Below are positions 1,779 through 49,738 of a stretch of 64,000 nucleotides of DNA, piece after piece. The stretch is taken from NCBI GenBank assembly GCA_964559225.1, contig CAZLGA010000002.1:11837-75836 (forward strand), in the 5' to 3' direction. The DNA is from an uncultured bacterium. GTDB taxonomy: Bacteria > Hydrothermota > Tepidihabitantia > SM23-42 > JAOAFX01. Position 1 is the first letter of the stretch; every line of letters starts with the position of its first letter. Made by a program: the position numbers and the translations under genes. The notes beneath the pieces were generated by a model that saw only the letters and a list, made by a program, of their open reading frames with translations, was not told where the DNA came from and did not search any database.

Positions 1779-1907
1779 TAAAATTCATTCATATTTTAAG
1801 GGCGCGAAGTCCCCTGGCTGAAAATGATTAGAAATCATTTAACCATTCAACCTTACTGGCAATTGTTTTAATTAACATCTGGGATTTGGCAGAGATTTTT
1901 AGATTCC

Positions 1908-1935
1908 TTGACTTCGCAGTCGGTTTTGATATAAT
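1908..1935 (+). promoter_or_regulatory. Putative sigma-70 promoter: TTGACT, 16-nt spacer, TATAAT, 20 nt upstream of the kinase ATG.
   Basis: Sequence ccTTGACTtcgcagtcggttttgaTATAATttg, seen directly. Confidence 0.5.
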
Positions 1936-1954
1936 TTGAAACGGAGATTTCTCA

Positions 1955-3871
1955 ATGGCACTGTTTCAATTTAGCTCTCTAAGAACTAAACTTGCACTAA
2001 GTTACATAGTCGCTGTTGGTTTCGTTGGCATTTTGTGTGCGATGATTGGTATCGTCACCATCAATCAGGGCATTATCAATCAGGCACAGGATCGAGTGAG
2101 CGCGGATTTGAATGCAGCAGGTTATATATATAACCAGATTGCGTTACAAGTTTTGAATACCTGCAGATTTACTGCTTCAAGATTTTTTTTGAAGGAAGCG
2201 TTGGTAAGAAATGACCGGAAAATAATCGCTACTGAATTCCGCCGAATACTAAACACAGAAAAAATCGATTTTCTTTCCGTCATTAATACAAAGTGTATCG
2301 TTGTGGCCCGGGGCTCAACTTCGGACCGATCAAATGATACTGTTAATAATCGGCTAATTGAGCATGCAATAAAAACAAAGACTCCTGTCAGTGCTACAGA
2401 AATATTAACTGCTGAAGAATTATATAAAGAGAATCCTCTGCTAAAACAAAAGGCAGAAATCAGGATTTTGCCGACCACCCGTGCTAAGTTCCAGCGCACA
2501 GGTGTTGAGACTTCAGGATTGGTGATCATCGGTGCTGCGCCAATTCTTGATGAAAATGAAAACGTGATCGGAGTTGTGTATGCCGGTAAGTTGATAAACA
2601 ATAATTTTGAAATTGTCGACCGTATAAAAAATACTGTCTTTATGAGTGAACAGTATAAGGGAAAGGATATTGGAACATCAACCATATTTATGAGAGATTT
2701 AAGGGTTTCCACAAATGTGACAAATATTGATGGCTCAAGGGCAATAGGGACATTAATATCAAAGGAAGTATATGATGCAGTACTTGAAAAAGGTCAGACC
2801 TGGCTCGCTCGGGCATTTGTAGTGAAGGACTGGTACATTACTGCCTATAGACCCATAAAAAATTTTGCCGGGGAGACAATAGGTGTTCTTTATGTTGGAA
2901 TATTGGAAAAAAAATATACTGATATGCGGAATCAGGTCATTTTGTTTTTTGTCGGTCTCACAATCATTGCAATGCTTGCAGTGACTGGATTCTCGTATCT
3001 GCTTTCCGGTGCAATCACAAAATCACTTGGAGAGATTGCTTGTGCAGCACGAGAAATTGGAAAGGGGAATTTCCCAGAGAAGATAAACATCACAACTAAA
3101 GATGAGATAGCAGATTTAGCAAAGGCGTTCCAGTATATGATAGATTCAATAAAGAGACGCGATGAAGAGCTGAAAAGATATGCACAGCAGACCATCGCTG
3201 AAGCAGAAAGACTGGCGATAATTGGACAACTTGCTGCCGGAGTTGCCCACGAGATAAACAATCCTTTGACAGGTATCTTACTGTATTGTGACTTAATGTT
3301 GAAAAATCTTTCTGATGATCACCCTCATAAGAAGCATCTTCTGCGCATAAACAATGAAGCTCAGCGCTGTAAAATGATAGTCAAGGGTCTGCTTGATTAT
3401 GCCAGAGAGAAGAAGCTTGAGATAAAGAAAGCATCAATAAATGAATTAGTTGAATCAACATTGAGCCTGTTGAAAACGCAGCCAATCTTTCTTAATATAA
3501 ACACAAAGATTGAACTTGATGGGAATATCCCTCAAATAAATATGGACCCCGGGCAAATCCAGCAGGTATTGATAAATATTATAATGAATGCGGTTGAGGC
3601 GATGGAAGGAAAAGGCGATTTGATAATAAAAACAGAGTTTTCTGAGGATAAGAGCTTTGTCCTCATATCTATATCTGATACTGGTCCGGGAGTAAAACCC
3701 GAGTTTATGAAGAAAATCTTTGAACCGTTCTTTACAACCAAAGAAGCACGTCAGGGAGTTGGACTTGGACTTTCAATAAGCAAGAGAATAATTGAGGACC
3801 ACAAAGGAACTATTGAGATTGTTAGTGAGCAGGGCAAAGGCGCCACATTTAAGATAAGGTTACCAATTTGA
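1955..3871 (+). CDS. Sensor histidine kinase with a periplasmic Cache-like domain, HAMP, HisKA and HATPase domains.
   Basis: Two TM segments (res ~15-35 and ~325-350) flank a ~290-aa extracytoplasmic domain. HAMP follows. H-box LAAGVAHEINNPL. G-boxes DTGPGV and GVGLGLSISKRI. Confidence 0.9.
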   Translation: MALFQFSSLRTKLALSYIVAVGFVGILCAMIGIVTINQGIINQAQDRVSADLNAAGYIYNQIALQVLNTCRFTASRFFLKEALVRNDRKIIATEFRRILNTEKIDFLSVINTKCIVVARGSTSDRSNDTVNNRLIEHAIKTKTPVSATEILTAEELYKENPLLKQKAEIRILPTTRAKFQRTGVETSGLVIIGAAPILDENENVIGVVYAGKLINNNFEIVDRIKNTVFMSEQYKGKDIGTSTIFMRDLRVSTNVTNIDGSRAIGTLISKEVYDAVLEKGQTWLARAFVVKDWYITAYRPIKNFAGETIGVLYVGILEKKYTDMRNQVILFFVGLTIIAMLAVTGFSYLLSGAITKSLGEIACAAREIGKGNFPEKINITTKDEIADLAKAFQYMIDSIKRRDEELKRYAQQTIAEAERLAIIGQLAAGVAHEINNPLTGILLYCDLMLKNLSDDHPHKKHLLRINNEAQRCKMIVKGLLDYAREKKLEIKKASINELVESTLSLLKTQPIFLNINTKIELDGNIPQINMDPGQIQQVLINIIMNAVEAMEGKGDLIIKTEFSEDKSFVLISISDTGPGVKPEFMKKIFEPFFTTKEARQGVGLGLSISKRIIEDHKGTIEIVSEQGKGATFKIRLPI

Positions 3872-4035
3872 ATACTTCATTCAAAAGTCAATAAATATAT
3901 GTTTAAGAATTAAACAAAAAACCATTGAGATTTGGAAATAAACAATCGTGTTTAAATAATATACAACAAGTCTTTCATTAGATTGCCTGGTTTCACCAAA
4001 AACTCACAAAATTTCATAAAATATTTGTTGTCCTC

Positions 4036-4051
4036 TGGCATGAATTTTGCA
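4036..4051 (+). promoter_or_regulatory. Canonical sigma-54 (-24/-12) promoter TGGCATG-N4-TTGCA. It probably drives the downstream phosphorelay and hdr genes under control of the adjacent NtrC-type activator.
   Basis: ctcTGGCATGaattTTGCAttt matches consensus TGGCACG-N4-TTGCW with one mismatch. GG and GC are spaced correctly. Confidence 0.6.
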
Positions 4052-4064
4052 TTTAGAATTAGTG

Positions 4065-4259
4065 ATGAAATGTCCATACCTTGAAGAGATTGTTGTAAAC
4101 TATTGTGCAGTAGCCCCGGTGAGAAAGATGATTCCCAAAGGAAAGCACAAGGAGCTTTCAAAGTGTGAGCAAGGATATTTTGATTGTCCTGTTTATCAAA
4201 ATTACCTCATGAAGAAGAAACAGGAACGACGTAATGGCGATGGAAGGAAAGAGAAATGA
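4065..4259 (+). CDS. Small Cys4 protein (64 aa from ATG 4065; the ORF track begins at a TTG at 4047). Possible zinc ribbon, translationally coupled (ATGA) to the hybrid kinase.
   Basis: MKCPYLEEIVVNYCAVAPVRKMIPKGKHKELSKCEQGYFDCPVYQ. Cys spacing C-x10-C-x19-C-x6-C. The stop overlaps the next start. The start lies at the predicted sigma-54 TSS, so the mRNA would be near-leaderless. Confidence 0.3.
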   Translation: MKCPYLEEIVVNYCAVAPVRKMIPKGKHKELSKCEQGYFDCPVYQNYLMKKKQERRNGDGRKEK

Positions 4260-5383
4260 AGCCGACGATTCCCAAGATACTGGTGATTGATGATGAACCG
4301 ACCATTTGCGATGCCTGTTATCAAATTCTCGCTGATAGGAACTACTCGGTGGAGGTCGCCAACAATGGTTTAGAGGGACTTAAGAAATTTGAAGATTTTG
4401 ACCCTGATATTGTGTTTATTGACCTGAAGATGCCTGGATTGAGTGGTGTTGATGTGCTAAGGGTAATTGTGGAAAAGAAAACAAATTCAATTCCAATTGT
4501 GATTACTGGTTATGCCTCTATTGAAACTGCAGTGGAATCAATGAAGAATGGTGCGTTTGACTTTCTCCCGAAACCATTCACTGCCGAGGAACTCATTGTG
4601 ATTACTGAACGAGCAATTGCAGAAAAACGGATTCTTGATGAGAAGGAAAAGATTGAAAAAGAGAAGGAGATGATGCGACAGAATTTTATCTCACTCGTTT
4701 CCCATGAATTACGAACTCCGTTGGTTGCGGTAATGCAGTATCTTGAGGTCCTTTTGGGCGGAATGGCAGGTCTGGTAACAGAGCAGCAGAAGAACATTCT
4801 TGATAGGATGAAGATACGGCTGAATGAGCTTCTAAATCTAATCAACCGCTGGTTGAAACTCGCTCGGATGGAAGAACTCAGTGTCAGGGAATCTTTTCAA
4901 AAATTTGAACTTGGGGATATCATTGAAGAGGCAATTGAGCTATTAAAGCCTCTTGCCGATGAAAAGGAGATAAAGATAGAAAAGAAGACAATTAGTGAAT
5001 CAACAAGAGTATTTGGTGACAGGGATTTAATCAAGGAAGTTTTTGTTAACATAATCACGAATAGCATAAAATACAATAAGGAGCAAGGATCGGTTTTCAT
5101 TGATTGCCGGCGAAACGGTAGTTGTGTTGCAGTTGATATTACTGATACAGGAATGGGTATTTCTGAAAACGAACTCAGTAAACTTGGTGAGGAATTTTAC
5201 CGAGTTAAGCGTGAAGGTATTGCCAGCGGTTCAGGACTTGGTCTGGCAATTGTGAAGAAAATACTTGATATTCACAATGGAAGAATTGAAATGAAGAGCA
5301 AACTGAACGAGGGGAGCACATTTTCAGTTTATTTGCCTCTTGCCTTTGATGAGGGTGAGAGCAGAAAAAGGAGTGAGTTATGA
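4256..5383 (+). CDS. Hybrid response regulator/histidine kinase (N-terminal REC, then HisKA + HATPase).
   Basis: REC (ILVIDDEPT...DLKMPGLSG). H-box ISLVSHELRTPLVAV. ATPase boxes DTGMGI and GSGLGLAIVKKI. Confidence 0.9.
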   Translation: MKPTIPKILVIDDEPTICDACYQILADRNYSVEVANNGLEGLKKFEDFDPDIVFIDLKMPGLSGVDVLRVIVEKKTNSIPIVITGYASIETAVESMKNGAFDFLPKPFTAEELIVITERAIAEKRILDEKEKIEKEKEMMRQNFISLVSHELRTPLVAVMQYLEVLLGGMAGLVTEQQKNILDRMKIRLNELLNLINRWLKLARMEELSVRESFQKFELGDIIEEAIELLKPLADEKEIKIEKKTISESTRVFGDRDLIKEVFVNIITNSIKYNKEQGSVFIDCRRNGSCVAVDITDTGMGISENELSKLGEEFYRVKREGIASGSGLGLAIVKKILDIHNGRIEMKSKLNEGSTFSVYLPLAFDEGESRKRSEL

Positions 5384-6171
5384 AAAAATCAAAGATTTTG
5401 TTCATTGATGATGATAAGGACTTTACTGAAGCGAACAAAATAATACTTGATAACGCGGGATATGATGTTATTACTGCTCAGGATGGTAAGACTGGAATGC
5501 AGAAGGCGATGAATGAGAAGCCCGATTTGATTATTCTTGATGTCATTCTGCCCGATATAAATGGGTTCTCATTGTGCCGGGAAATAAAAGAGGATATGAA
5601 CTTACAGGGTATCCCGGTAATACTTTTTACTGCTATTGGTGGAAAACCAGGTGCTTATCCTGAGAATATTGGAATACAGCACAAGGCAGATGCATATATT
5701 GAAAAACCTGCAAGTCCTCAAATTCTCTTAGAGAAAGTTAGTTTTCTCCTTACCACTGCTGCGCCCAGACAAAAAATTGAAGGTGCGAAGCCTAAAATTC
5801 TGCTTGTTGATGATGACCCAGATTTTCTTGAGGCAACAAAGCAAATCTTACAGGCAAATCGTTTTGAGGTGATCACTGCTAAGGATGGTGAAGAAGGTAT
5901 TCAAAAGGCAAAGATTGAGAATCCTGACTTAATATTTCTTGATGTGATTATGCCTGGCAAGGATGGTTATACGGTATGCTATGAACTGAGAAAGAATCCT
6001 CAAACAAGGCCAATTCCCATAATTATGCTTACAGCAATCGGACAGCAATTATCAAAACCCGAGTATGCTGTTGATATTGCGATTGACCACCTCGCAGATG
6101 ATTTTATTGACAAACCAGTTGATGCCCAAACTCTTTTGAAAAAAATAGAGAAGCATCTGTTATTCAGATAG
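5380..6171 (+). CDS. Tandem dual receiver-domain protein (REC-REC) with no output domain.
   Basis: Two receiver domains: ILFIDDDKDF...DVILPDINGF and ILLVDDDPDFLEA...DVIMPGKDGY. The start overlaps the upstream stop. Confidence 0.85.
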   Translation: MKKSKILFIDDDKDFTEANKIILDNAGYDVITAQDGKTGMQKAMNEKPDLIILDVILPDINGFSLCREIKEDMNLQGIPVILFTAIGGKPGAYPENIGIQHKADAYIEKPASPQILLEKVSFLLTTAAPRQKIEGAKPKILLVDDDPDFLEATKQILQANRFEVITAKDGEEGIQKAKIENPDLIFLDVIMPGKDGYTVCYELRKNPQTRPIPIIMLTAIGQQLSKPEYAVDIAIDHLADDFIDKPVDAQTLLKKIEKHLLFR

Positions 6172-6187
6172 ATAGGGTGGGCGATTT

Positions 6188-6682
6188 ATGAGCGATATTG
6201 AACCAAAATTCAAATATGAAGTCGCGCAGGAACCTGGTGGCGAGAAGATAAAACTCTGCTTTGCCTGTGGAATATGTACTGCAAGCTGTGCAGTGAGGGA
6301 AATTGACGAACGCTACAATCCCAGGAAGATAATAAGAATGATTCTTTTAGGTATGAAGAAAAGGGTTCTTGAGAATGAGTTTATTTGGTTGTGTTCGAGT
6401 TGTTACGCCTGCACTGAACGGTGTCCACAGGGTGTTCGGTTTACCGATGTTATGAATGCCATAAAAAATCTTGCAGTAAAACAGGGGTATGTCCCAAGTG
6501 CATTCATTCAGCAGATTGAAATCTTAAGAAATCTGGGAAGGCTCTATGAGATTGATGAATTTGACAATAACAAGAGAACAGCACTCGGGTTACCGAAGGT
6601 CTCAAAGGCTAAAGGATTTACACGGAAGATTATGGAGATAACAGGACTAATCAAGATTGTTAATAGAAAGAATGGACTGTAG
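6188..6682 (+). CDS. hdrC: Heterodisulfide reductase subunit C (4Fe-4S dicluster domain protein).
   Basis: CFACGICTASCAV and CSSCYACTERCPQ motifs. The end of the gene matches HdrC. Confidence 0.88.
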   Translation: MSDIEPKFKYEVAQEPGGEKIKLCFACGICTASCAVREIDERYNPRKIIRMILLGMKKRVLENEFIWLCSSCYACTERCPQGVRFTDVMNAIKNLAVKQGYVPSAFIQQIEILRNLGRLYEIDEFDNNKRTALGLPKVSKAKGFTRKIMEITGLIKIVNRKNGL

Positions 6683-6730
6683 GTTATCCGTTATTCTGAT
6701 AACCTTTTCTATGAAATGGAGTGTTAGATT

Positions 6731-7609
6731 ATGAAGTACGCATTTTTCCCTGGTTGTACGGTATTGGGTCGGGGCAGAAACTACGAGATGTCGGCAAGGG
6801 CGATTTCTTCGGTTTTAGGCATTGAGCTTATTGATCTTGATGATTTTGAATGTTGCGGCTTTCCGTTGAAATCGGTTCACTATGATACATATACGCTTAT
6901 GGCAGTAAGGAATATTTTTATTGCCGAAGAAAAGGGGTTTGATATCTGCACATTATGCAGTGCCTGCACTGGCTCACTTACGGAGGTCAACAGACATTTC
7001 AATGAAAATTTTGATGAAAAAGCCAAGGTTGTAGCACAACTGAGGAAAAGTGGAATTGAATTGAGAGTCAGCAAACCAGTAAGAGTAAAACACTTGATAA
7101 AAATTATTTATGAAGAGGTCGGGTTGGAAAAATTAGAAAAATCAATAAAGAAAAAGTTATCAAATCTTGCTCTTGCACCACATTACGGTTGTCATTACCT
7201 AAAACCTTCAGACATTTATGAGCCATCAGAAGATCCTGAGAATCCGAAATCCCTGGATGAATTGATCAGTGTTACTGGTGCACGAGTCGTCAATTATTCA
7301 GAGAAATTGAGATGTTGTGGGGCAGGTATCCTTGCGGTTAATGAAGATACCGCATATTTAATGACTCAACCGAAATTGAGAGAACTGACAAGAAATTCAG
7401 CTGATGCAATGGTTCTGATGTGTCCATTTTGCAGTGTGATGTATGATGATAATCAGAAGAAAATTGAACAGAAGTTTCAGGAACAGTACAATCTTCCCGT
7501 TCTCTATTACCCACAAGTGCTTGGGCTGGCAGTGGGATTAGAACCGAAAGCTCTTGGATTACAGATGAACAGGGTATCAACGCGGACACTGTTGGAGAAA
7601 ATAAAATGA
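6731..7609 (+). CDS. hdrB: Heterodisulfide reductase subunit B (two CCG cysteine-rich domains).
   Basis: CCG motifs ECCGFPL and LRCCGAG, flanked by CxxC-type segments (CTLCSACTG; CPFCSVM). Confidence 0.88.
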   Translation: MKYAFFPGCTVLGRGRNYEMSARAISSVLGIELIDLDDFECCGFPLKSVHYDTYTLMAVRNIFIAEEKGFDICTLCSACTGSLTEVNRHFNENFDEKAKVVAQLRKSGIELRVSKPVRVKHLIKIIYEEVGLEKLEKSIKKKLSNLALAPHYGCHYLKPSDIYEPSEDPENPKSLDELISVTGARVVNYSEKLRCCGAGILAVNEDTAYLMTQPKLRELTRNSADAMVLMCPFCSVMYDDNQKKIEQKFQEQYNLPVLYYPQVLGLAVGLEPKALGLQMNRVSTRTLLEKIK

Positions 7610-7675
7610 TGGCACTAATTATAACCACCCCTTTAATCTTATTGACTGTCATATTATTCAACCGGTTACTATATA

Positions 7676-10600
7676 ATGAATACATCTGATCAAAAAGTTG
7701 GTGCTGTCTTGGTCATTGGTGGTGGTATAGGGGGGGTCCAGGCATCTCTGGACCTTGCCGATTCTGGATTCAAAGTGTATTTGCTTGAAAAGTCCCCAAG
7801 CATTGGTGGTGTGATGGCACAACTTGATAAAACATTCCCAACCAATGATTGTTCAATGTGTATATTAGCGCCAAAACTTGTCAGTGCGGGCAGACATCCG
7901 AATATTGAATTAATAACCTATGCTGAACTTGAAAGTATCCAGGGCGAACCTGGTGAGTTCACGGTTCGTATTCTAAGAAAATCGCCATTTGTTGATTGGG
8001 ATAAATGTAATGGGTGTGGTGTATGCTGGGGAAAGTGTCCAATAAATACTCATTCTGATTTTGAATGTGGCCTGGGAAAGAGAAAGGCGATATATGTTCC
8101 GTTCCCACAGGCAGTCCCGAATAAAGCAGTTATTGATAAGGAACACTGCACATATTTCGTAAAGGGTGGTAAATGTCGGGTGTGTCAGATTCTTTGTCCA
8201 GCAAAGGCAGTAGATTTCAATATGCCTGATAAGATGATTGATATAAGTGTAGGTAGCATAATAATAAGTAGTGGCTTAAAAACTTTTGATCCTCATTTGA
8301 AAACAGTTTTTGGTTATGGTAAATATGCAAATGTAATAAAATCTATTGAGCTGGAAAGAATCTTGAACGCCTCGGGTCCGTTCCAGGGGCATCTTGTAAG
8401 ACCTTCAGACCGAAAGGAACCACAAAAACTGGCATTTATTCAATGTGTTGGTTCCAGGGATATAAAATCAGGTAATGCATATTGCTCATCAGTTTGCTGT
8501 GTATATGCAATAAAAGAGGCAATTCTAATGAAGGAGCATAATCGGTCACTTGATTGCACGATATTTTATATGGATATGAGAACATTTGGAAAGGGGTTTG
8601 AAGCATACTACAAAAGGGCAAAAGAAAAATATGGAATAAAATTTAAGCGGGCAATGGTTGGAGAAATCACTGAGTTGTCCGAGAGCAAGAATTTATTGGT
8701 CAAATATGAAGATGAGGACGGCAATCTCAATAGAGAAAATTTTGATATGGTTATTCTGTCTGTTGGACTGAGACCCGATGAAAACGCAAAAAAACTTGCT
8801 GAAATTTTGAATTTAGAATTATCCGAATTCAATTTTGTAAAATCTATTCCTTTTTCGCCGATTGAGACAGCCCAACCAGGTATATTTGTATGCGGAACCG
8901 CTTCGTCACCCAAAGATATTCCAGAAACAGTTACCGAAGCGAGCGCTGCGGCGCAGAAGGCGATTGAATTGATAAAAGAAGAAAGGCATAAACTTACGAG
9001 AAAGGTTGAATATCCTGGCGAGATTGATGTTTCGGGTGAACAACCCCGTATAGGTGTCTTTGTCTGTCATTGTGGCATAAATATTGCTGGAACAGTAAAG
9101 ATAATGGAAGTTGTTGAATATGCAAAAACATTACCGAATGTTGTATATGCAGAAAATAATCTTTATTCCTGTTCTGATGATTCCCAGCAACATATAAAAG
9201 AGATGGTTGAAAAACATAAACTGAACAGGGTTGTAGTGGCTGCATGCACACCAAGAACTCACGAACCTTTATTCCAGGAGACGATAAGAGAAAAAGGATT
9301 GAATAAATTTTTATTAGAATTTACAAATATACGAGACCAGTGCTCCTGGGTTCATTCGCAGGAACCAGAACAAGCCACTGAAAAGGCAAAAGACCTTGTT
9401 AGAATGGCGTGCGCGAGGGCAAGCCATTTGGAAGCGTTGCCAACGATTACTATTCCGGTTACACAGAGTGGGCTTATTATCGGCGGTGGTATCAGTGGAA
9501 TGAATGCAGCACTGAGCCTTGCAAATCAGGGATACAAGGTTTATCTTGTGGAAAAACAGGGAGAGCTTGGTGGAAATGCCCGGCATCTAATCTACACAAT
9601 TGATGGCAGGAATATAAAAGAATATTTGGATTCACTGATACAAAAAGTGGAGACACATCCTGATATCACGGTTCATAAGAACAGCAATATTGAATCAGTA
9701 AACGGATATATTGGTAATTTTCAGACGAGAGTAAAGAAGCAAGAAGCAGGAAATAAGAAGCAGGAAATAATTGAGATTGAACACGGCGTGATAATCATTG
9801 CAACCGGGGCTACAGAATACAAACCAGTTGAATATCATTATGGTAAGGATCCGAGAATAATTACTCAGAGAGAACTTGAAAAATTTCTATTTGACCATCA
9901 AACTATCACACCATCAGACTATAAGACGGTTGTCATGATTCAATGCGTTGGTTCACGCGATAACGAAAGAAAATATTGCAGTCGCATCTGTTGTTCTGAG
10001 GCGATAAAAAATTCCTTGCTTATTAAACAGAAGAATCCTGAAACCGAAGCCATTATATTTTATAAAGATATGAGGACGTATGGACTTAATGAGATATTCT
10101 ATCAAAAGGCAAGGGATGCTGGTGTTGTATTCATAAGATATGATGACGAGTTTAAACCTGAGATTTCTTCTCATAATGGTAAGCTTGTTGTTAAGGCAAG
10201 AGAGCCGATACTGAATGAGGAAATTGAATTACCAGCAGATCTCGTTGTTCTGTCTGCAGGAACTGTTCCGAATGAATCAAACAGGGAGATCGCCCAGTTG
10301 CTAAAAGTGCCTTTGAATGAAGATGGATTTTTTCTTGAGGCGCATATGAAACTTCGTCCGGTTGACTTTGCTACAGATGGAATATTTATTTGTGGTATGG
10401 CGCATTCACCAAAGACAATTGATGAGTCCATTGTTCAGGCTCAGGCAGCAGCATCAAGGGCAGGGATAGTTCTTTCAAAAGACACAATTGAAGTCCTGCC
10501 AGCAGTTGCCAAAGTGGATGCGGAAAAATGCATTGGTTGTGGAATTTGCGAGACGTTATGTGCTTATCAGGCACACGAGTTAAAAAAGACTGATAAGGGT

Positions 10601-10729
10601 TATCGTTCAGAAGTCATTTCCGCTTATTGTAAGGGCTGTGGTAGTTGTGCAGCGTCCTGCCCCCAGCATGCGATACTGATGAAACATTTCACAAATGACC
10701 AGATAATGGCAATGGTGGAAGCAGTATGA
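7676..10729 (+). CDS. hdrA: Large HdrA-like flavoprotein (1017 aa) with two FAD/NAD(P)-type Rossmann modules and ferredoxin-type clusters. The architecture is HdrL-like.
   Basis: N-terminal VIGGGIGGVQASLDLA. HdrA hallmark Cys clusters (CNGCGVCWGKCP; CRVCQILCP; CVGSRD...YCSSVCC). A second dinucleotide fold IIGGGISGMNAALSLA at ~res 600 with its own CVGSRD...YCSRICC segment. C-terminal 2x[4Fe-4S] (CIGCGICETLC...CKGCGSCAASCPQ). Confidence 0.88.
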   Translation: MNTSDQKVGAVLVIGGGIGGVQASLDLADSGFKVYLLEKSPSIGGVMAQLDKTFPTNDCSMCILAPKLVSAGRHPNIELITYAELESIQGEPGEFTVRILRKSPFVDWDKCNGCGVCWGKCPINTHSDFECGLGKRKAIYVPFPQAVPNKAVIDKEHCTYFVKGGKCRVCQILCPAKAVDFNMPDKMIDISVGSIIISSGLKTFDPHLKTVFGYGKYANVIKSIELERILNASGPFQGHLVRPSDRKEPQKLAFIQCVGSRDIKSGNAYCSSVCCVYAIKEAILMKEHNRSLDCTIFYMDMRTFGKGFEAYYKRAKEKYGIKFKRAMVGEITELSESKNLLVKYEDEDGNLNRENFDMVILSVGLRPDENAKKLAEILNLELSEFNFVKSIPFSPIETAQPGIFVCGTASSPKDIPETVTEASAAAQKAIELIKEERHKLTRKVEYPGEIDVSGEQPRIGVFVCHCGINIAGTVKIMEVVEYAKTLPNVVYAENNLYSCSDDSQQHIKEMVEKHKLNRVVVAACTPRTHEPLFQETIREKGLNKFLLEFTNIRDQCSWVHSQEPEQATEKAKDLVRMACARASHLEALPTITIPVTQSGLIIGGGISGMNAALSLANQGYKVYLVEKQGELGGNARHLIYTIDGRNIKEYLDSLIQKVETHPDITVHKNSNIESVNGYIGNFQTRVKKQEAGNKKQEIIEIEHGVIIIATGATEYKPVEYHYGKDPRIITQRELEKFLFDHQTITPSDYKTVVMIQCVGSRDNERKYCSRICCSEAIKNSLLIKQKNPETEAIIFYKDMRTYGLNEIFYQKARDAGVVFIRYDDEFKPEISSHNGKLVVKAREPILNEEIELPADLVVLSAGTVPNESNREIAQLLKVPLNEDGFFLEAHMKLRPVDFATDGIFICGMAHSPKTIDESIVQAQAAASRAGIVLSKDTIEVLPAVAKVDAEKCIGCGICETLCAYQAHELKKTDKGYRSEVISAYCKGCGSCAASCPQHAILMKHFTNDQIMAMVEAV

Positions 10730-10934
10730 ATACTACGACGCAGGATTGCATCGCTCGCAGGATCGTCCTGACAGGGAAGTCAAGACTCGCAGGATTATCC
10801 GCCACGAAGATTGGCGGATTTGCAGGAGATGCTTTTGCAGGTCGCAGGCGATACTGCAAATTGAATCACACTGCGAATCCCGATTTTATTATTGAGATAG
10901 ATGCTCCGAATAGTGCATCTTTTTAGGAGTTTCA

Positions 10935-11693
10935 ATGTCTGATTTTCAACCACGGATTCTTGGGTTTTTATGCAACTGGTGTTCTTATGCAGGTGCCGAC
11001 CTTGCGGGTGTATCAAGAATTCAGTATCGCCCGAATATCAGAGTGATAAGAGTGATGTGTTCGGGTAGGGTTGATCCAGTTTTCATAGTTAATGCTTTTT
11101 TGAGAAAAATTGATGGTGTTATGGTACTGGGTTGTCATTTTGGCGATTGCCATTATCTGAACGGCAATTATAATGCTGAAAAAAGGATTGTTGCTGCACA
11201 AGAGCTTTTGGCTTTTACCGAAATTGCAAAGGATAGACTATACTTAGATTGGGTATCTGCAGCAGAAGGCGAAAGGTTTGCAAATCTCGCAAACACATTC
11301 GTAAACAAAATTAGGGACATCGGTCCGATAACTATCTCAGAGCAGACCGAAGCAATGCTTTTATCGGTCAGAGATGTGCTCCAGAGTGAACTATTTAGAC
11401 ACCTGACTGGTGTGGAGTACCAGATAACCGAGAGAGAGAATGCCTATGGTGAGAAGATTCCGGCTGAGGATTTCAAGAAGAAGTTAGGTGGAATACTTTA
11501 CCAAGAGTATATTAGGGCACGCATATGTCGCTTACTGAAGAGCAACTATTATACAGTACCTGAAATTGCTCGAATTCTCAATATCGCGCCGGACCTTGCA
11601 TTTGAAAGTGTCTGTTCATTGCAGGAAAAAGGTAGTGTTTCAATGATAGAAATAAGAAATGAATATCCGATATATGGAGCTAACAAATCATAA
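10935..11693 (+). CDS. mvhD: MvhD-like protein (methyl-viologen-reducing hydrogenase delta-subunit family) fused to a ~120-aa C-terminal extension that has the look of a winged helix-turn-helix.
   Basis: N-terminal ~130 aa LGFLCNWCSYAGADLAGVSRIQYRPNIRVIRVMCSGRVDP...GCHFGDCHY is collinear with the MvhD ORF at 14980-15384. The C-terminal tail ...YTVPEIARILNIAPDLAFESVCSLQEKGSVSMIEI resembles a wHTH recognition helix plus wing. Confidence 0.8.
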   Translation: MSDFQPRILGFLCNWCSYAGADLAGVSRIQYRPNIRVIRVMCSGRVDPVFIVNAFLRKIDGVMVLGCHFGDCHYLNGNYNAEKRIVAAQELLAFTEIAKDRLYLDWVSAAEGERFANLANTFVNKIRDIGPITISEQTEAMLLSVRDVLQSELFRHLTGVEYQITERENAYGEKIPAEDFKKKLGGILYQEYIRARICRLLKSNYYTVPEIARILNIAPDLAFESVCSLQEKGSVSMIEIRNEYPIYGANKS

Positions 11694-11836
11694 TCCAAGA
11701 GTTAATAAAGATTTATGGGTTGAGGTTGGGATGCGGCTCTTTTTGAACCACTTAACCAATTACCATTTAACCAAAATATACCAGTTTATCAGCCCCAATC
11801 AAGCAACTATTCCCGGACATTTTGAAGGATACATAT

Positions 11837-14800
11837 ATGAATAAGATTGGTGCAGTCATGGTCGTGGGTGGCGGTATCGGCGGTATCCAGGCATCTCTTG
11901 ACCTGGCGAATTCTGGGTTCAAAGTCTATTTACTGGAGTCCGCCCCGGCAATAGGCGGAATAATGGCAATGCTTGATAAGACATTTCCGACAAATGATTG
12001 TTCAATGTGCATAATGGCACCTAAACTTGTTGAATGTGCACGCCATCTCAATATAAAAATTATTCCCGACGCAAGAATTGAAAGGCTTAGCGGTGGAGCG
12101 GGAAATTTTATTGTCAGGGTGCGGAAGAAAGCAAGATATGTAGATACTACAAAGTGCACAGGCTGTGGTGAATGCCGGAAACACTGTCCGATTGAAATCG
12201 CTGATAGATTTAATCAGGGATTGACAAAGAGAAAGAGTATTTATATTGACTATCCACAGGCTGTCCCCGCAGTATACGCGATTGATAAGAACAATTGTCT
12301 TGGATGTGGGGTATGTGAAAAGATATGTCTTGCTGGTGCAGTTAAATATAAAGATAGTGACACAATAGAGGACCTGAATGTTGGTTCAATAATTCTTTCT
12401 TCTGGTTCAGACGCATTTTACCCGAAGGGTTATACAAATTTTGGTTATGGTATTTATAAGAATGTTGTTACAAGCCTTGAATTTGAGCGTATTCTATCTG
12501 CTTCAGGCCCGTTTTCCGGGCATTTGCTCAGACCTTATGAAGGAAAGGCGCCAAAGAGGATTGCCTTTATTCAGTGTGTTGGTTCAAGAGACCCGCAAGC
12601 AGGGAAGGGATATTGTTCTTCAGTTTGCTGCACCTATGCGATAAAAGAAGCAATAATTGCAAAAGAGCACTCAAAGAATGGACTTGAAGCTACGATATTC
12701 TTTATGGATATCAGGACATTTGGTAAGGGCTTCGAAGATTATTATAATCGTGCCAAGAATGAATACGGTGTAAGATTTGTTCGTGCTGGTGTATCCAAAA
12801 TAGAAGAGGTTCCTGAGACGAATAACCTCATAGTGCATTACGAAGATGAAGAAGGCAAGATTATAGAAGAAGAATTTGACATGGTGATACTCTCTGTTGG
12901 TCTTGTCCCGAAGCAGGATACTGCTCAAATGGCAAGATGCTTGCGGCTTAAGCTGAATACTTATGATTTCTGTAAGACCTCTGAATTTATTCCAGTTGAC
13001 ACGATACATGACGGAATATTCGTTTGTGGTGCATTTGCGGGTCCCAAAGACATTCCTGAAACTGTTGCCCAGGCTTCTGCTGCTGCAGGTAGGGCAATGG
13101 CTTTGTTGTCTGAATCCCGGGGTAGTTTAATTGTCAGGAAAGAATATCCTCAGGAATTAGATGTATTAAATGAGAAGCCACGCATAGGAGTTTTTGTTTG
13201 CCACTGCGGAATAAATATTGGTGGGTACGTAAATGTGCCTGAGGTTGTAGAATACACAAAACAATTGCCAGATGTAGTATTTGCAGATAACAATCTTTAT
13301 ACCTGTTCCCAGGATACGCAGAAGAGAATAATTGAAAAAATCAGAGAGCATAACCTGAACCGGATTGTTGTTGCTTCGTGCACTCCGAGAACCCATGAGC
13401 CACTTTTCAGAGAGACCATTCGTGAGGCAGGTTTGAACCAGTATCTATTTGAGATGGCAAATATCCGCGACCAATGCAGTTGGATTCATATGAATGAACC
13501 ACAACCTGCAACTCAAAAAGCAAAGGATTTGGTGAAGATGGCGGTCTCAAAGGCAAGGTTACTTATGCCTTTGAAAAGGGTTGAAATTGATGTAATTCAG
13601 AAAGCGCTTGTTGTTGGTGGTGGTATTGCAGGTATGAGTTCTGCACTTCTGCTTGCGGAACAGGGATTTGAAGTTGTTCTTGTTGAGAAGGAAAAAGAAC
13701 TTGGTGGTAATCTACGACATATACACCGGACATTAGAAGACAGAGATGTACAGGATTTTTTGAAGAAGACGGTTGAAGCAGTAAGCAAAAGTAAATTGAT
13801 AAAGGTGTACACAAATGCTCGGATTGAAGATATAACAGGCTTTGTGGGGAATTACAAAACACGTATTAAAATTGGGGGGTTGGAGGCGGAAAGTGAGAAA
13901 CTGGAACAAAAGCAAGTGGAAATTGAACATGGGGTAGTCATTGTTGCAACCGGGGCTCAAGAATACAAACCCACAGAATATCTCTATGGTAAGGACCGAC
14001 GGATAATCACCCAGAAAGAACTTGAAAGAGTTATTTTTGACGATCAGACCATCAGACTGTCAAACTATGAGACTGTTGTCATGATTCAATGCGTCGGTTC
14101 GCGCGATAACGAAAGAAAATATTGCAGTCGTATATGCTGTTCTCAGGCAATAAAGAATGCCTTAAATCTTCTTGAAATAAACCCTGATACGAACATCTAT
14201 ATTATTTACAAAGATATCCGTACCTATGGATTCAAAGAAGAATTATACCGCGAGGCAAGAGGAAAAGGTATTGTCTTTATTAGATATGATGATACAAGAA
14301 AGCCAGAACTAAAAAACGAAAATGGAAAATTTAAAATAAAGGTCTTTGAACCGATTTTGAAAGAAGATTTGATAATAGATGCTGACTTGATTGTTCTTTC
14401 TTCTGGTATTATTGCAGATCCGAACAATAAAACCCTCGCAAAAATGCTAAAAGTTCCTTTGAATAGTGATGGTTTCTTCCTTGAAGCCCATGTTAAGCTA
14501 AGACCGGTTGACTTTGCAACCGAAGGTGTATTCGTAGCAGGAATGGCGCATAGTCCGATGACTATCGCTGAATCTATTACACAGGGACAGGCAGCAGCAG
14601 CACGTGCTACAACTATTTTAGCAAACAAAAAATATTATGCGGAAGCAACTGTTTCTTCAGTTAATGAAGAACTATGCGCAGGTTGCGGTATGTGTGGGGC
14701 ATTGTGTCCTTACGAGGCAATAATATATAAAGAAAAAGATGGCAAGAAAATTTCCAGTGTTAATGAGGCATTGTGTAAGGGCTGTGGGACCTGCGTTGCT

Positions 14801-14875
14801 GCTTGTCCTTCTGGTGCAATAGTTCAGTATGGTTTTACAAAAAAACAGATAATCGCAATGGTGGAAGCAATATGA
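11837..14875 (+). CDS. hdrA: Second large HdrA-like flavoprotein, a paralogue of 7676-10729. The ORF track starts at a TTG at 11822; ATG 11837 has a better RBS.
   Basis: Collinear with the first copy: VVGGGIGGIQASLDLA; CTGCGECRKHCP; CVGSRD; VVGGGIAGMSSALLLA; C-terminal CAGCGMCGALCPY...CKGCGTCVAACPS. About 75% identical over the first ~75 aa by eye. Confidence 0.88.
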   Translation: MNKIGAVMVVGGGIGGIQASLDLANSGFKVYLLESAPAIGGIMAMLDKTFPTNDCSMCIMAPKLVECARHLNIKIIPDARIERLSGGAGNFIVRVRKKARYVDTTKCTGCGECRKHCPIEIADRFNQGLTKRKSIYIDYPQAVPAVYAIDKNNCLGCGVCEKICLAGAVKYKDSDTIEDLNVGSIILSSGSDAFYPKGYTNFGYGIYKNVVTSLEFERILSASGPFSGHLLRPYEGKAPKRIAFIQCVGSRDPQAGKGYCSSVCCTYAIKEAIIAKEHSKNGLEATIFFMDIRTFGKGFEDYYNRAKNEYGVRFVRAGVSKIEEVPETNNLIVHYEDEEGKIIEEEFDMVILSVGLVPKQDTAQMARCLRLKLNTYDFCKTSEFIPVDTIHDGIFVCGAFAGPKDIPETVAQASAAAGRAMALLSESRGSLIVRKEYPQELDVLNEKPRIGVFVCHCGINIGGYVNVPEVVEYTKQLPDVVFADNNLYTCSQDTQKRIIEKIREHNLNRIVVASCTPRTHEPLFRETIREAGLNQYLFEMANIRDQCSWIHMNEPQPATQKAKDLVKMAVSKARLLMPLKRVEIDVIQKALVVGGGIAGMSSALLLAEQGFEVVLVEKEKELGGNLRHIHRTLEDRDVQDFLKKTVEAVSKSKLIKVYTNARIEDITGFVGNYKTRIKIGGLEAESEKLEQKQVEIEHGVVIVATGAQEYKPTEYLYGKDRRIITQKELERVIFDDQTIRLSNYETVVMIQCVGSRDNERKYCSRICCSQAIKNALNLLEINPDTNIYIIYKDIRTYGFKEELYREARGKGIVFIRYDDTRKPELKNENGKFKIKVFEPILKEDLIIDADLIVLSSGIIADPNNKTLAKMLKVPLNSDGFFLEAHVKLRPVDFATEGVFVAGMAHSPMTIAESITQGQAAAARATTILANKKYYAEATVSSVNEELCAGCGMCGALCPYEAIIYKEKDGKKISSVNEALCKGCGTCVAACPSGAIVQYGFTKKQIIAMVEAI

Positions 14876-14979
14876 ATATGAATTCCAGATTCCATACTCA
14901 TCAGAAATACTCAAAGATCAGAAATTGGAATTGGTTTGGTCATCGGTGGTTCGGATTTAGTACTTGATTTTGCGGAGTA

Positions 14980-15384
14980 TTGATGTCTAATTTCAAACCC
15001 AAAATAATCGTCTTCTGCTGCAACTGGTGTTCTTATGCGGGTGCTGACCTTGCAGGGGTATCAAGGCTACAAATGAACCCCAATTTTCGGGTAATAAGGA
15101 CTATGTGTTCAGGAAGGATAGAACCAGAGTTTATATTAACTGCATTCACAAAAGGGGTAGATGGTGTATTAATCACTGGATGCCATCCTGGTGACTGTCA
15201 TTATATTTCAGGTAATTATAAAACCTTGAGGCGGTATAATGCATTAAAATTACTCTTAAAAGAAATGGGTATTGATGATAGACGCCTTAAATTAGAATGG
15301 ATTTCTGCAGGGGAGGGGGCAAGATTTCAGGAGGTTATAAATAACTTCATAAAAACTATTTCCGAACTTGGACCCAAAGATTAA
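14980..15384 (+). CDS. mvhD: MvhD-like protein (134 aa, no C-terminal extension).
   Basis: IVFCCNWCSYAGADLAGVSRLQ...RVIRTMCSGRIEP...GCHPGDCHY. Confidence 0.85.
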   Translation: MMSNFKPKIIVFCCNWCSYAGADLAGVSRLQMNPNFRVIRTMCSGRIEPEFILTAFTKGVDGVLITGCHPGDCHYISGNYKTLRRYNALKLLLKEMGIDDRRLKLEWISAGEGARFQEVINNFIKTISELGPKD

Positions 15385-15502
15385 ATAGCATTTTTCCCTT
15401 ACCTCTAATAGTTTTAGTATGTATCAAAAAAGGAATTGAAGTTCTCTGAATTAAATAACGGAAAACGAGTTTTACAAAAAGGGCGGAAAGATGATAGATT
15501 GA

Positions 15503-16240
15503 TTATTTGAGGATTTCTTTCAGATTTTCCATATTTTCATAATCAGTAAGGTCAAGCTTTAAAGGAGTGATTGAGACATAGTTATTATCAACTGCCTCAA
15601 AATCAGTATCAGTATCAACATGATAGTCAAGAACCCCATCAATTACACTATACATTACACCATTCTGTTCCAGATCTCTTAAAACTTTGTCCCTGTATAT
15701 TCTTCTGCCCATTTTTGTTATTTTTTCGCCTTTAATCTCTTTTTCTGGAATGTTTACATTAAGAATGAAATTATTAATATGCTTATAAAGTAGCCGTTGT
15801 ATTAAATTTATTGAATATTTGACCGCACCTTCAAAATTGCTATAAGTCTCACCTGAAAGTGAAAGTGCAATCGCTTTTTTTATTCCAAGTGTGCCAGCCT
15901 GGAGTGCAGCCGCAACCGTCCCGGAATAGAATACATCGCTCCCCATATTGGGTCCATGATTTATGCCGGAGACCACTATCTCTATTTCTTTATTACGAAC
16001 AAGGTCATGATACGCAAGTAACACACAGTCGGTTGGTGTCCCATCAATGATAAAAAAGTCGTTCTTTAATTTTTCGACCCTTATCGGCCGGCGCAGGGTC
16101 AAAGAATGGCTTGAACCACTCTGTTGGAATCTGGGTGCAGCAACAAAAATTTCAAATTTTTTATTCTTCAATTCTTTATAGAGTGCCTGCAATCCCGCTG
16201 CGTCATAGCCATCATCATTTGTTAATAATACTAACCCCAT
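15503..16240 (-). CDS. surE: 5'/3'-nucleotidase SurE.
   Basis: N-terminal MGLVLLTNDDGYDAAGLQAL is the SurE signature. Length 245 aa. Confidence 0.9.
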   Translation of the reverse strand: MGLVLLTNDDGYDAAGLQALYKELKNKKFEIFVAAPRFQQSGSSHSLTLRRPIRVEKLKNDFFIIDGTPTDCVLLAYHDLVRNKEIEIVVSGINHGPNMGSDVFYSGTVAAALQAGTLGIKKAIALSLSGETYSNFEGAVKYSINLIQRLLYKHINNFILNVNIPEKEIKGEKITKMGRRIYRDKVLRDLEQNGVMYSVIDGVLDYHVDTDTDFEAVDNNYVSITPLKLDLTDYENMENLKEILK

Positions 16241-16947: not shown

Positions 16948-18207
16948 TTATCGCGCTAATACCGCAGTCTTTTTTGCCTTTGTGATGTTATTAAGATAGT
17001 GATATTCAAGATAGACAATATACATTCCTGTTGGTGCATTGCCCTTTACCGTCTTGCCATTCCAAAATAAAGTTCCTTTATCAGAATCAATGGGCATTTT
17101 TTTGCATAAGTCGCAGATTTTAATTCCTCGTGAATCATAAATTGATATTGTAAGTTCACCACCGGGTTGAGGTAATCGATAATCGATTTGAAGTTCATCA
17201 TTATAACCATCACCGTCAGGCGTAAATATTGCGGGTGTAAGGCATAGTTCACCAACTTTGCCGAGGACGAGCAATTTTTTAAAGGCGGTGTTATTGTTTA
17301 AATTTTTATCTTCGGCAAATTCTATTTTAAATCCAAGATTGTGTTCTCCCTGATATGGTTTCACATATTCATGATATAGAAAGGTTGTATCAAATGCACC
17401 GACTGGTTCGCCGGTAATATTCCAAAGTAATTCAGAATTTTCAAGAATTTTGTCATTATTTTTGTCATCAAAGATTAATAGACTATAATCAATTGAAGAC
17501 CTTATTCCTGAGTTTATTATTCCAATGCTTATTTTAACATCTTCGCCTGCCTCTACTTTCGCGGGTATAAATGAAATCAAATCGGCACCAAGTCCAAGGT
17601 CAAATGCATCAGTTACACTATTTGTATAACCGGGTGTGCAACCAGAGGCACTAATACTGGGATGCCAGTTTGTAATTGTGTCGGGTAAGCTATAATCAAT
17701 TCTTTCCCAGGAAATGCCATCCCCGGGATTTTTAGGAAAATTATCTCCAATGTATGGTGTCCCAAAGCTCGTGGTACAGGCAGCACTGATTGAAAAAACA
17801 ATTATCGGGTCATTCGTTGCGAGCCCATCGCCAATTGATGTATCATCTGTTGTTAATATCAGAATTCCCGGAGGTATATTATATGGCTGACAATTTATGG
17901 AATCCGGAACAATATATTCACGGTCAAGTATCAAAGCATAAGAATAGGGATAAATAATGGTAGAATGAATACGGACAGCAGGGTATTTTATTAAGATTGA
18001 TTCATTTTCCCATGCACATATTTCATCCGGGTTTGCATCAAAATCAGAAACAAGGTAGCCGTTCAAATCAATCGTATCGGAACTTTGATTGTAAATTTCC
18101 ACAAATTCATTTCTGTCTCCGTAGGGATTTTCCGGTCCTTTTACATTGGACATTACTTCAGTTATAATTAGTCGTGAGTTGCTTATTAGTATAAAGAGAA
18201 TTACCAT
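16948..18207 (-). CDS. Secreted lamin-tail-domain (LTD) protein with a T9SS type-B (gliding-motility-associated) C-terminal sorting domain.
   Basis: LTD motif LIITEVMSNVKG...NEFVEIYNQSSDTIDLNGYLVSD. C-terminal FTPDGDGYNDELQI...ISIYDSRGIKI matches the type-B CTD pattern FSPNGDGxND. Confidence 0.7.
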   Translation of the reverse strand: MVILFILISNSRLIITEVMSNVKGPENPYGDRNEFVEIYNQSSDTIDLNGYLVSDFDANPDEICAWENESILIKYPAVRIHSTIIYPYSYALILDREYIVPDSINCQPYNIPPGILILTTDDTSIGDGLATNDPIIVFSISAACTTSFGTPYIGDNFPKNPGDGISWERIDYSLPDTITNWHPSISASGCTPGYTNSVTDAFDLGLGADLISFIPAKVEAGEDVKISIGIINSGIRSSIDYSLLIFDDKNNDKILENSELLWNITGEPVGAFDTTFLYHEYVKPYQGEHNLGFKIEFAEDKNLNNNTAFKKLLVLGKVGELCLTPAIFTPDGDGYNDELQIDYRLPQPGGELTISIYDSRGIKICDLCKKMPIDSDKGTLFWNGKTVKGNAPTGMYIVYLEYHYLNNITKAKKTAVLAR

Positions 18208-49449: not shown

Positions 49450-49459
49450 TTTTGCCTCC

Positions 49460-49639: not shown

Positions 49640-49698
49640 TGTAATTTCCCATTATTATCGTCCGAATGAATTTGGAGGCTACAATTAAAAAAGTTCTT

Positions 49699-49726: not shown

Positions 49727-49738
49727 TATTTTTTAACA

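Follow-up and report, generated by a model that had tools for sequence, protein, structure and literature searches.

In the 64,000-nucleotide stretch that we analysed (the window; positions 11,837 to 75,836 of contig CAZLGA010000002.1, assembly GCA_964559225.1, an uncultured bacterium), a single pair of heterodisulfide reductase (Hdr) genes, hdrC and hdrB, is followed by two genes for large type II HdrA proteins, each with its own mvhD. By analogy with characterised enzymes, these six proteins probably form a soluble complex for flavin-based electron bifurcation or confurcation, with the electron donor and acceptor encoded elsewhere. HdrA-based electron bifurcation is the source of low-potential ferredoxin for many strict anaerobes. 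The protein class as such was already known, whereas the paired arrangement, the combination of a long and a short MvhD adaptor, the wide distribution and the sigma-54 control are undescribed as far as we could find. An earlier description made from the letters alone (the sequence-only reading) had recognised two HdrA-like open reading frames (ORFs) of about 1017 aa behind one hdrCB, each with its own mvhD, and the ORF map and Pfam agreed with this layout.

Both large proteins (A1 and A2, encoded by hdrA1 and hdrA2) are type II HdrAs, i.e. one-chain pseudo-dimers of HdrA with two FAD-binding domains that would reproduce an asymmetric HdrA dimer. In each of them Pfam recovered two separate Pyr_redox_2/NAD_binding_8 stretches together with ferredoxin motifs, and two CVGSRD...YCS(S/R)(V/I)CC segments were present (residues 256-275 and 756-773 in A1). 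[quoted passage not shown] According to this mapping, each chain has a single N-type cluster domain and two ferredoxin domains, one of them inserted and the other C-terminal. Along A1, TrxR1 (residues 1-440; C59/C62, E227, K280 and cluster Cys 257/270/274/275) contains the inserted 2x[4Fe-4S] ferredoxin domain at about 101-185, the second motif of which is unusual (CX8CX2CX3CP), and is followed by the N-type [4Fe-4S] domain (455-590), the more diverged TrxR2 (591-940; K778 and Cys 757/768/772/773) and the C-terminal 2x[4Fe-4S] ferredoxin domain (941-1017). The domain order of A2 is the same, and the second motif of its inserted ferredoxin domain is the canonical CxxCxxCxxxC.

TrxR1 and TrxR2 of A1 are homologous (36% identity over 253 aa, E 4e-41) and both match FAD/NAD Rossmann models, in line with the two dinucleotide-binding modules per ORF claimed at the outset; the second module, singled out for checking, matches FAD/NAD-binding models as well. 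The two domains underwent complementary loss: the TNDCSMC motif is found in TrxR1 only, and TrxR2 has neither the CxxC pair nor the inserted ferredoxin domain. Fused HdrAs with complementary loss of Cys197 and the N-domain have been described (PMC9012536). All cluster cysteines, C59/C62, K280 and K778 were invariant in 119 homologues, and the glutamate partners E227 and E735 were invariant in an alignment of 53 sequences, K280 with E227 in TrxR1 and K778 with E735 in TrxR2 being the equivalents of Lys409/Glu356. The AlphaFold2 model of A1 showed a confident global arrangement (pLDDT 87.5, pTM 0.90), and Foldseek returned HdrA chains as the best matches for both halves (TMt 0.78 and 0.93). Thus, two FAD and seven [4Fe-4S] clusters are predicted per chain from the conserved residues. 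The expression ‘internally duplicated’ is not supported, since the published phylogeny indicates that type II HdrA arose when two distinct type I classes became fused (PMC12054007). At the time of that classification the type II class was without biochemistry (PMC12054007), and in the searched literature no type II HdrA structure was found besides that of BamE from class II benzoyl-CoA reductase.

The proteins had also been labelled ‘HdrL-like’ and potentially able to bind NAD(P)H directly. HdrL of Desulfobacterium autotrophicum is an HdrA/glutamate-synthase fusion with an NADH site (PMC2702500). Neither Pfam nor alignment with GltD-bearing relatives revealed a GltD/PF14691 module in A1 or A2; they lack the very module that defines HdrL, and the label was dropped. 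In the GltD-bearing relatives (P0011, P0014 and P0022; 1470-1580 aa) a block of 484-593 aa that is missing from A1 and A2 comprises PF14691 plus a Rossmann domain and lies inside the inserted ferredoxin domain of TrxR1. The additional module of A1 and A2, by contrast, aligns to the TrxR FAD domain of HdrA and is the second such domain of the chain. NADH activity amounted to 190 U/mg for Moorella HdrA, which has GltD, and to 0.5 U/mg for Sporomusa HdrA, which does not (PMC9430772, PMC5861303), a difference of about 400-fold. Because the second module is an FAD domain, GltD is missing and high NADH activity tracks GltD, direct use of NAD(P)H is unsupported. We therefore consider it very improbable that A1 and A2 are HdrL-type enzymes whose second dinucleotide-binding module oxidises NAD(P)H directly, even though A1's closest relatives beyond WOR-3 (65-68% identity) bear GltD and share the architecture of Moorella HdrA, and the Sporomusa enzyme keeps its weak NADH:benzyl viologen activity without GltD. 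The A1 clade has an unusual CX7-8CX2CX3C motif exactly where GltD inserts in these relatives. A1 may belong to a lineage whose relatives insert GltD in the ferredoxin domain, and may have lost this module or never had it.

A1 and A2 share 57% of their residues (566/1001), their codon-aligned DNA is 62% identical and the MvhD domains of the long and the short adaptor are 56% identical. The two copies were therefore not produced by an assembly artefact; the value set beforehand as indicative of one was a nucleotide identity above 95%. The proposal of clearly diverged, old paralogues held. The N-terminal identity of about 75% given with it applies to roughly the first 60 residues, but not to the first 100, of which 66% are identical. 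Equal mechanical length and identical domain order of both ORFs might still suggest a recent local tandem duplication or an artefact. With the nucleotide identity observed, with both HdrAs and both MvhDs occurring as orthologous pairs in independent metagenome-assembled genomes (MAGs) from different studies, and with long and short MvhD classes that are older than these lineages, the probability of such an origin is negligible.

The two adaptors belong to different types. Pfam detected FlpD in both, but the first mvhD, named simply mvhD in the sequence-only reading, encodes 252 aa compared with about 135 aa for a standard MvhD. FlpD covers residues 8-130 of this long form, and the MvhDs of the PDB align to residues 1-138 only. 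Its [2Fe-2S] domain (1 to about 132; 52% identical to methanogen MvhD in 5ODC, TMt 0.88) is followed by a helical linker and a winged-helix domain (about 205-250). In the AlphaFold2 model (pLDDT 93.8, pTM 0.91) the C-terminus consists of three helices and a beta-hairpin in winged-helix arrangement, and Foldseek matched the C-terminal half to winged-helix domains of AdcR, ZitR, CzrA, HlyU, SmtB, Z-alpha and S25e. An exhaustive phmmer search with the extension yielded 59 remote homologues (a word-indexed search gave one protein); when these were scanned together with the query (n=60), 32 had an MvhD domain and 30 matched HTH_5 of the ArsR family. Full-length homologues (250-260 aa, 45-51% identity) are common in WOR-3, Promethearchaeota/Lokiarchaeota, Hodarchaeota, Hermodarchaeota and Bathyarchaeota.

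A comparable MvhD adaptor, BamF, exceeds the usual length by more than 100 aa, and its winged helix-turn-helix docks BamI (bioRxiv 10.64898/2026.04.10.717634); besides this preprint, no paper on an MvhD-type adaptor with a winged helix was found in the searchable literature. By analogy, the winged helix of the long MvhD may serve for docking and connect A1 with another partner, which could be A2.

The best genome matches of the window are MAGs of candidate division WOR-3 (84-86% identity), in which the whole operon is kept, and a 64% identical relative (L020) has the same arrangement. Exact-sequence look-ups with window proteins, aimed at extending the contig, had no match. The WOR-3 synteny runs from a divergent hdrC'-hdrB'-hdrA'::mvhD cluster over the NtrC regulator, Cache kinase, REC-kinase and REC-REC protein to hdrC, hdrB, A1, long MvhD, A2 and short MvhD. 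In the divergent cluster of the relatives (158-3631 in L002; also in L012-L015) hdrC' (163 aa) and hdrB' (284 aa) accompany a fusion protein of 703-705 aa, according to Pfam a type Ia HdrA with MvhD fused C-terminally as in Methanosarcina HdrA2. Unrelated housekeeping genes lie beyond this cluster, and in L012 it is present without the neighbouring paired operon. What had been counted as a third hdrC at the window start is the truncated hdrC' of this cluster and actually the second hdrC of the window.

The core of the operon recurs as a four-gene unit, consisting of a type II HdrA with or without GltD, a winged-helix MvhD of 250-258 aa, a second type II HdrA and a short MvhD, also in other bacteria, in Hodarchaeota and probably in Bathyarchaeia. 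The earlier wording ‘tandemly duplicated’ understated the case, since the pair with its long and short MvhD is a unit conserved across domains and not a local duplication. In two unclassified bacteria (L017, L005) it occurs with hdrCB and the same regulators, and the HdrA in position 1 carries GltD. Elsewhere the surroundings vary: hdrCB precedes the unit in L021, with mvhG, mvhA, hycI and the short mvhD upstream; hdrC, hdrB, mvhG, mvhA and hycI follow it in L024; two FrhB-like genes and an HdrD-like protein accompany it in L023 (Hodarchaeota); and in L025 hdrCB stands on one side of it and metV-metF on the other. Every locus with the unit had a single HdrCB or HdrD set for its two HdrAs. Single type II HdrAs with mvhD, hdrCB and mvhGA also occur in Bathyarchaeota, and L022 has a GltD-bearing HdrA with NuoEFG-like genes and no hdrBC. 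No paper describing the four-gene HdrA/MvhD unit as a unit was found in the literature.

Positions 1 and 2 of the unit were distinguished only in the MvhD tree and by a ferredoxin-motif signature. In the MvhD tree (neighbour-joining) long forms cluster across lineages, with that of L024 basal, and short ones join stand-alone MvhDs. Position-2 HdrAs always keep the canonical CxxCxxCxxxC motif in the inserted ferredoxin, and position-1 HdrAs have a loop or a GltD module at this place in seven of eight cases. Two ancient clades of position-1 and position-2 HdrAs, also considered, are unsupported by the HdrA tree. Like the MvhD tree, it is a crude, midpoint-rooted neighbour-joining tree with no support values.

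Additional genes were noticed at two of these loci. In L005, ORFs of 407, 263 and 328 aa (717-3874, minus strand), about 3 kb upstream of the operon and on the opposite strand, resemble acyl-CoA dehydrogenase, EtfB and EtfA, a likeness seen from the N-terminal sequence only. In class II benzoyl-CoA reductase, BamD has an ETF as its high-potential acceptor, so the presence of these ORFs may or may not be coincidental. In the archaeal-type locus L021, genes for a GlcD-like FAD oxidase, an HdrD-like protein and a lipoate-protein ligase (3030-6619) are placed between mvhGA-hycI-mvhD and hdrCB, and DsrE and TusA genes lie downstream. This may hint at lactate/glycolate-type, lipoate-linked or sulfur-carrier-linked substrates for some versions of the unit.

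HdrB of the operon has two Pfam CCG stretches with the Cys pattern C9/C41C42/C73-79 and C154/C195C196/C231,C234. Possible partners were sought with Pfam in all window ORFs of at least 140 aa, minus two antisense ORFs inside larger genes (2122-2712 and 36932-37390, both minus strand). No hydrogenase, formate dehydrogenase, MetF/V, Etf, Flx/Nuo or Dsr/Apr protein was detected among them, and the earlier statement that the window has no hydrogenase or formate dehydrogenase was thereby confirmed. The [NiFe]-hydrogenase genes mvhA and mvhG, missing from the window, stand next to the four-gene unit in L021 and L024. Several known systems were considered and set aside. For Qmo, HdrC scored 76 bits against QmoC (cut-off 300), and neither a membrane domain nor apr was present; for Flx-Hdr, there were no flx genes; for class II benzoyl-CoA reductase, bamB, bamC and bamGHI were missing and no window ORF matched the AOR, NuoE, NuoF or NuoG families. 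In the sHdr system of sulfur oxidisers HdrA is small and single-domain, with 6tjr matching only residues 190-432 of A1, and to our knowledge no MvhD occurs there.

The order hdrC-hdrB-hdrA-mvhD is also that of the Moorella and Sporomusa methylene-tetrahydrofolate (methylene-THF) reductases, and in L025 metV and metF flank the four-gene unit. The operon might, on this evidence, encode the Hdr part of a Moorella-type enzyme (MetFV-HdrCBA-MvhD) with metFV elsewhere in the genome. We regard this as improbable: neither the 64-kb window nor any syntenic locus of WOR-3 gave a match to methylene-THF reductase (MTHFR) or to PF12225 of MetV, and the unit pairs elsewhere with MvhAG or FrhB-like genes.

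MvhADG-HdrABC and BamDEF of class II benzoyl-CoA reductase served as models for the electron path that we propose in the probable bifurcating complex. The C-terminal ferredoxin domain and the [2Fe-2S] cluster of MvhD would be the entry point, from which electrons would reach the FAD of TrxR1. The high-potential electron would pass from the [4Fe-4S] cluster of TrxR1 via HdrC to the non-cubane clusters of HdrB and on to a disulfide or another high-potential acceptor, and the low-potential electron would go by the Cys pair and the N-type cluster to the inserted ferredoxin domain and from there to ferredoxin. The short MvhD may dock A2 to a donor module encoded elsewhere. MvhAG hydrogenase would be the likeliest such module because of the unit contexts in L021 and L024 and because WOR-3 MAGs commonly carry mvhADG together with hdrABC (PMC12542636). 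Likewise as a weaker suggestion, A1 and A2 may be parts of one complex.

Several observations weigh against this proposal. The NCBIfam scores of HdrC (114.8 bits for TIGR03290, cut-off 160), HdrB (265.8 bits for TIGR03288, cut-off 345) and HdrA (829 bits, cut-off 1400; 1081 for the HdrA2 model, cut-off 1100) are all under the equivalog cut-offs, so a CoM-S-S-CoB substrate is not implied; signs of CoM/CoB metabolism were also absent from this bacterial window. Neither the window nor the surroundings of the operon in any WOR-3 relative contained a donor or acceptor gene. The HdrA tree groups position-1 and position-2 copies by lineage and not by position, the two HdrAs of a pair being 72% identical in L024, 67% in L021, 60% in L025 and 57% in the WOR-3 window; this pattern fits either co-evolution or gene conversion in an old pair or repeated duplication. 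The second TrxR domain of BamE holds a non-bifurcating, apparently structural FAD off the electron path (bioRxiv 10.64898/2026.04.10.717634), so two flavins need not mean two bifurcation sites in A1 and A2 if they behave like BamE. Finally, DNA binding is an equally possible role for the winged helix of the long MvhD.

The paired genes might alternatively provide two isoenzymes, one made up of A1 and the long MvhD and the other of A2 and the short MvhD, that assemble separately with the shared HdrBC; the organism would then possess two bifurcating enzymes that differ in donors or ferredoxin partners. The adaptors that go with the two HdrAs are of different types, A1 and A2 differ in the ferredoxin-domain motif, and the Bathyarchaeota loci manage with a single type II HdrA plus mvhD, hdrCB and mvhGA. 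Nevertheless, both modules are co-transcribed from one promoter with no terminator detected between them, and the pair has stayed intact in phylogenetically distant lineages, accompanied each time by a single HdrCB or HdrD set. Moreover, the position-1 and position-2 HdrAs of several lineages are closer to each other than to their counterparts elsewhere, which would fit co-evolution inside one complex. Altogether, two isoenzymes appear possible, yet we think them unlikely.

A more far-reaching version of the one-complex proposal, which as a whole we hold to be doubtful, would combine these observations: the unit would be an ancient module of Bacteria and Archaea that plugs into MvhAG, MetFV, FrhB-like proteins or a GltD insertion, and the winged-helix MvhD would couple both HdrAs physically and electronically. 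If so, two bifurcating flavins would work in one machine, in series or in parallel, and even up to four are conceivable, given that the Lys/Glu signature is kept in the two TrxR domains of A1 as well as of A2. Such a machine would parallel, with Hdr proteins only, the coupled bifurcation modules reported for class II benzoyl-CoA reductase. The recurrence of the unit in WOR-3, Asgard and probably Bathyarchaeia points to a defined, uncharacterised architecture in abundant uncultured lineages of sediments and the subsurface. The modules attached to it (for H2, methylene-THF, F420-type and NAD(P)H partners) provide testable guesses on what the unit couples. The annotation is corrected as well: the proteins are neither HdrL nor methanogen-type HdrABC equivalogs, and an NAD(P)H site is unsupported.

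The operon begins with a sigma-54 promoter and a 64-aa Cys-rich ORF, followed by the REC-kinase, the REC-REC protein, hdrC, hdrB, hdrA1, the long mvhD, hdrA2 and the short mvhD (Table 1). The genes are spaced by 16-205 nt. A simple scan gave no convincing terminator within the operon, including the region between the two HdrA-MvhD modules, and Rfam had no match across 3800-15600. The true start of A2 is probably the ATG at 11837 behind GAAGGA, giving 1012 aa, and that of the short mvhD probably the ATG at 14983. The long MvhD reads FLCNWCSYAG with Cys and has no in-frame TGA, i.e. it is without a selenocysteine of the BamF type.

Table 1 Features of the hdr operon and of its upstream region (positions in the window)
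Feature	Position	Strand	Evidence
hdrC', 5' part, divergent; 106 aa visible, runs past the window edge	1-320	-	translation
NtrC-type sigma-54-dependent response regulator: REC, AAA+ sigma-54 interaction domain, Fis-type helix-turn-helix	426-1778	+	Pfam, synteny
Sensor histidine kinase, Cache/HAMP	1955-3871	+	Pfam
Sigma-54 type -24/-12 promoter element TGGCATGAATTTTGCA	4036-4051	+	pattern search
Cys-rich 64-aa ORF (MKCPYLEEIVVNYC...), conserved	4065-4259	+	translation, synteny
Hybrid kinase, REC-HisKA-HATPase	4256-5383	+	Pfam, synteny
Response regulator, tandem REC-REC, without output domain	5380-6171	+	Pfam, synteny
hdrC-like, 2x[4Fe-4S]	6188-6682	+	Pfam Fer4
hdrB-like, two intact CCG motifs (non-cubane cluster sites)	6731-7609	+	Pfam CCG, Cys pattern
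hdrA1 (A1), type II HdrA, 1017 aa	7676-10729	+	Pfam, mapping on HdrA 5odc_A, AlphaFold2, Foldseek
Long mvhD, 252 aa, winged helix at C-terminus	10935-11693	+	Pfam FlpD, AlphaFold2, Foldseek
hdrA2 (A2), type II HdrA, 1017 aa from TTG start	11822-14875	+	Pfam, alignment
Short mvhD, 134 aa, standard MvhD length	14980-15384	+	Pfam FlpD

The sigma-54 element is located about 13 nt upstream of the 64-aa ORF in all eight WOR-3-type syntenic loci (8/8). The ORF itself, the first gene behind the promoter and overlapping the start of the REC-kinase, is likewise present in 8/8 of them; it had no Pfam or NCBIfam match. Its product contains four Cys, with the consensus MKCP[YF]LEEI[VI]VNYC..APVRKMIPKGK..ELSKCEQGYFDCPVYQNYL, and may be a small metal- or redox-binding regulator. 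The NtrC-type regulator is syntenic in L001-L004, L013, L014 and L020 and the REC-HisKA-HATPase kinase in L001-L005, L017 and L020; the Cache kinase is linked to the operon also in L017 (downstream) and L020. The sigma-54 promoter, the NtrC-type activator and the Cache sensor kinase together offer a regulatory handle on the system. A second exact sigma-54 pattern match (TGGCATAAATATTGCT) lies inside hdrA1 (9073-9088, plus strand) and at the same relative position in L002 (11398-11413). Coding constraint in a conserved part of the gene is the likely explanation, an internal promoter being the other candidate.

The 205-nt spacer between hdrA1 and the long mvhD (10730-10934) is richer in GC than its surroundings and contains the direct repeats CGCAGGAT (three copies) and TTTGCAGG (two copies) as well as a perfect 8-bp hairpin. 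Its predicted RNA fold had a z-score of -2.7, with no Rfam match. As a part of the system the spacer was set aside; it is unconserved in relatives and only about 40 nt long in L002.

Other regions of the window contain further groups of genes. An oxidative-stress/redox block on the minus strand (48390-57995) encodes two peroxiredoxins, two rubrerythrins, a ferritin/Dps-like protein, a Fur-family regulator, a DUF438-hemerythrin-PAS protein and a 170-aa fusion of the catalytic subunit of ferredoxin:thioredoxin reductase with a rubredoxin-like domain (56605-57117); a two-subunit 2-oxoacid:ferredoxin oxidoreductase lies amid this block (50703-53715). On the plus strand, 32591-35740 encodes a 1049-aa protein of unusual chemoreceptor layout, in which an MCP signalling domain (about 392-523) is joined by a family-5 extracellular solute-binding domain at the C-terminus (627-967); CheW, CheA, CheC/X and large TPR proteins come next. 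Sorting domains for type IX secretion terminate a gingipain-like C25 peptidase of 1333 aa (59839-63840, minus strand) and a 474-aa protein (58411-59835, minus strand), and a lamin-tail-domain protein with a CHU_C sorting signal is encoded at 16948-18207. The type IX sorting domains fit an origin from the FCB group (WOR-3).

Compared with known systems, HdrL of D. autotrophicum resembles A1 and A2 in being a large HdrA relative followed by mvhD, and one locus of that bacterium has hdrL and hdrA in tandem plus hdrCB (PMC2702500), but HdrL has the glutamate-synthase-type NADH module that A1 and A2 lack. The MetFV-HdrCBA-MvhD enzymes of Moorella thermoacetica and Sporomusa ovata (PMC9430772, PMC5861303) share the gene order hdrC-hdrB-hdrA-mvhD and HdrAs with two TrxR-like FAD domains. 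Moorella HdrA (1487 aa) carries GltD within an extra N-terminal unit, the architecture of the GltD-bearing relatives of A1 and unlike that of A1 and A2 themselves, and Sporomusa HdrA is without an inserted ferredoxin domain, of which A1 and A2 keep one. Furthermore, these operons have one HdrA and one MvhD, whereas the WOR-3 operon has two of each and no metFV nearby.

The similarity to methanogen MvhADG-HdrABC (PDB 5ODC) extends to an HdrB with both CCG motifs and to HdrA, with which each domain of A1 aligns (E 1e-48 to 1e-116). However, the HdrA dimer of that complex is replaced by single-chain pseudo-dimers, no mvhAG is adjacent and all subunits score under the NCBIfam equivalog cut-offs. 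Type II HdrAs of anaerobic methanotrophic (ANME) and other methane-cycling archaea (A3/A4; PMC12054007, PMC9012536) share with A1 and A2 the two TrxR domains per chain, the complementary loss of N-domain and Cys197 and the K409/E356 equivalents in both domains. Their clusters include FdhB and a non-catalytic molybdopterin protein as partners, unlike the WOR-3 operon, a bacterial locus controlled by sigma-54 in which two type II copies are combined with a long and a short MvhD. In the HdrA3/4 of PMC9012536 the half-units stand in reverse order, whereas in A1 and A2 the unit with the Cys pair comes first.

A close architectural parallel is BamDEF of Geobacter metallireducens; this comparison rests, for BamE and BamF, on the published description (bioRxiv 10.64898/2026.04.10.717634) and on residue numbers. 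BamBC (tungsten AOR) and BamGHI have no counterparts in the window, BamD is a fused protein while HdrB and HdrC are separate in the WOR-3 operon, and the Bam cluster has one HdrA where the WOR-3 operon has two paralogues. The layout of BamF, a long MvhD with a winged helix, is matched by the 252-aa MvhD, although BamF has selenocysteine (Sec19) where the long MvhD has Cys. Like A1, BamE is a fused HdrA dimer with two TrxR-FAD domains, seven [4Fe-4S] clusters and one inserted plus one C-terminal ferredoxin domain, and the residues at its bifurcating FAD, Cys59-Cys62 and Lys280, coincide in number with those of A1. In TrxR2, A1 has a Lys (K778) where BamE has Gln768, and the second flavin site of A1 and A2 thus keeps, unlike that of BamE, the Lys/Glu signature.

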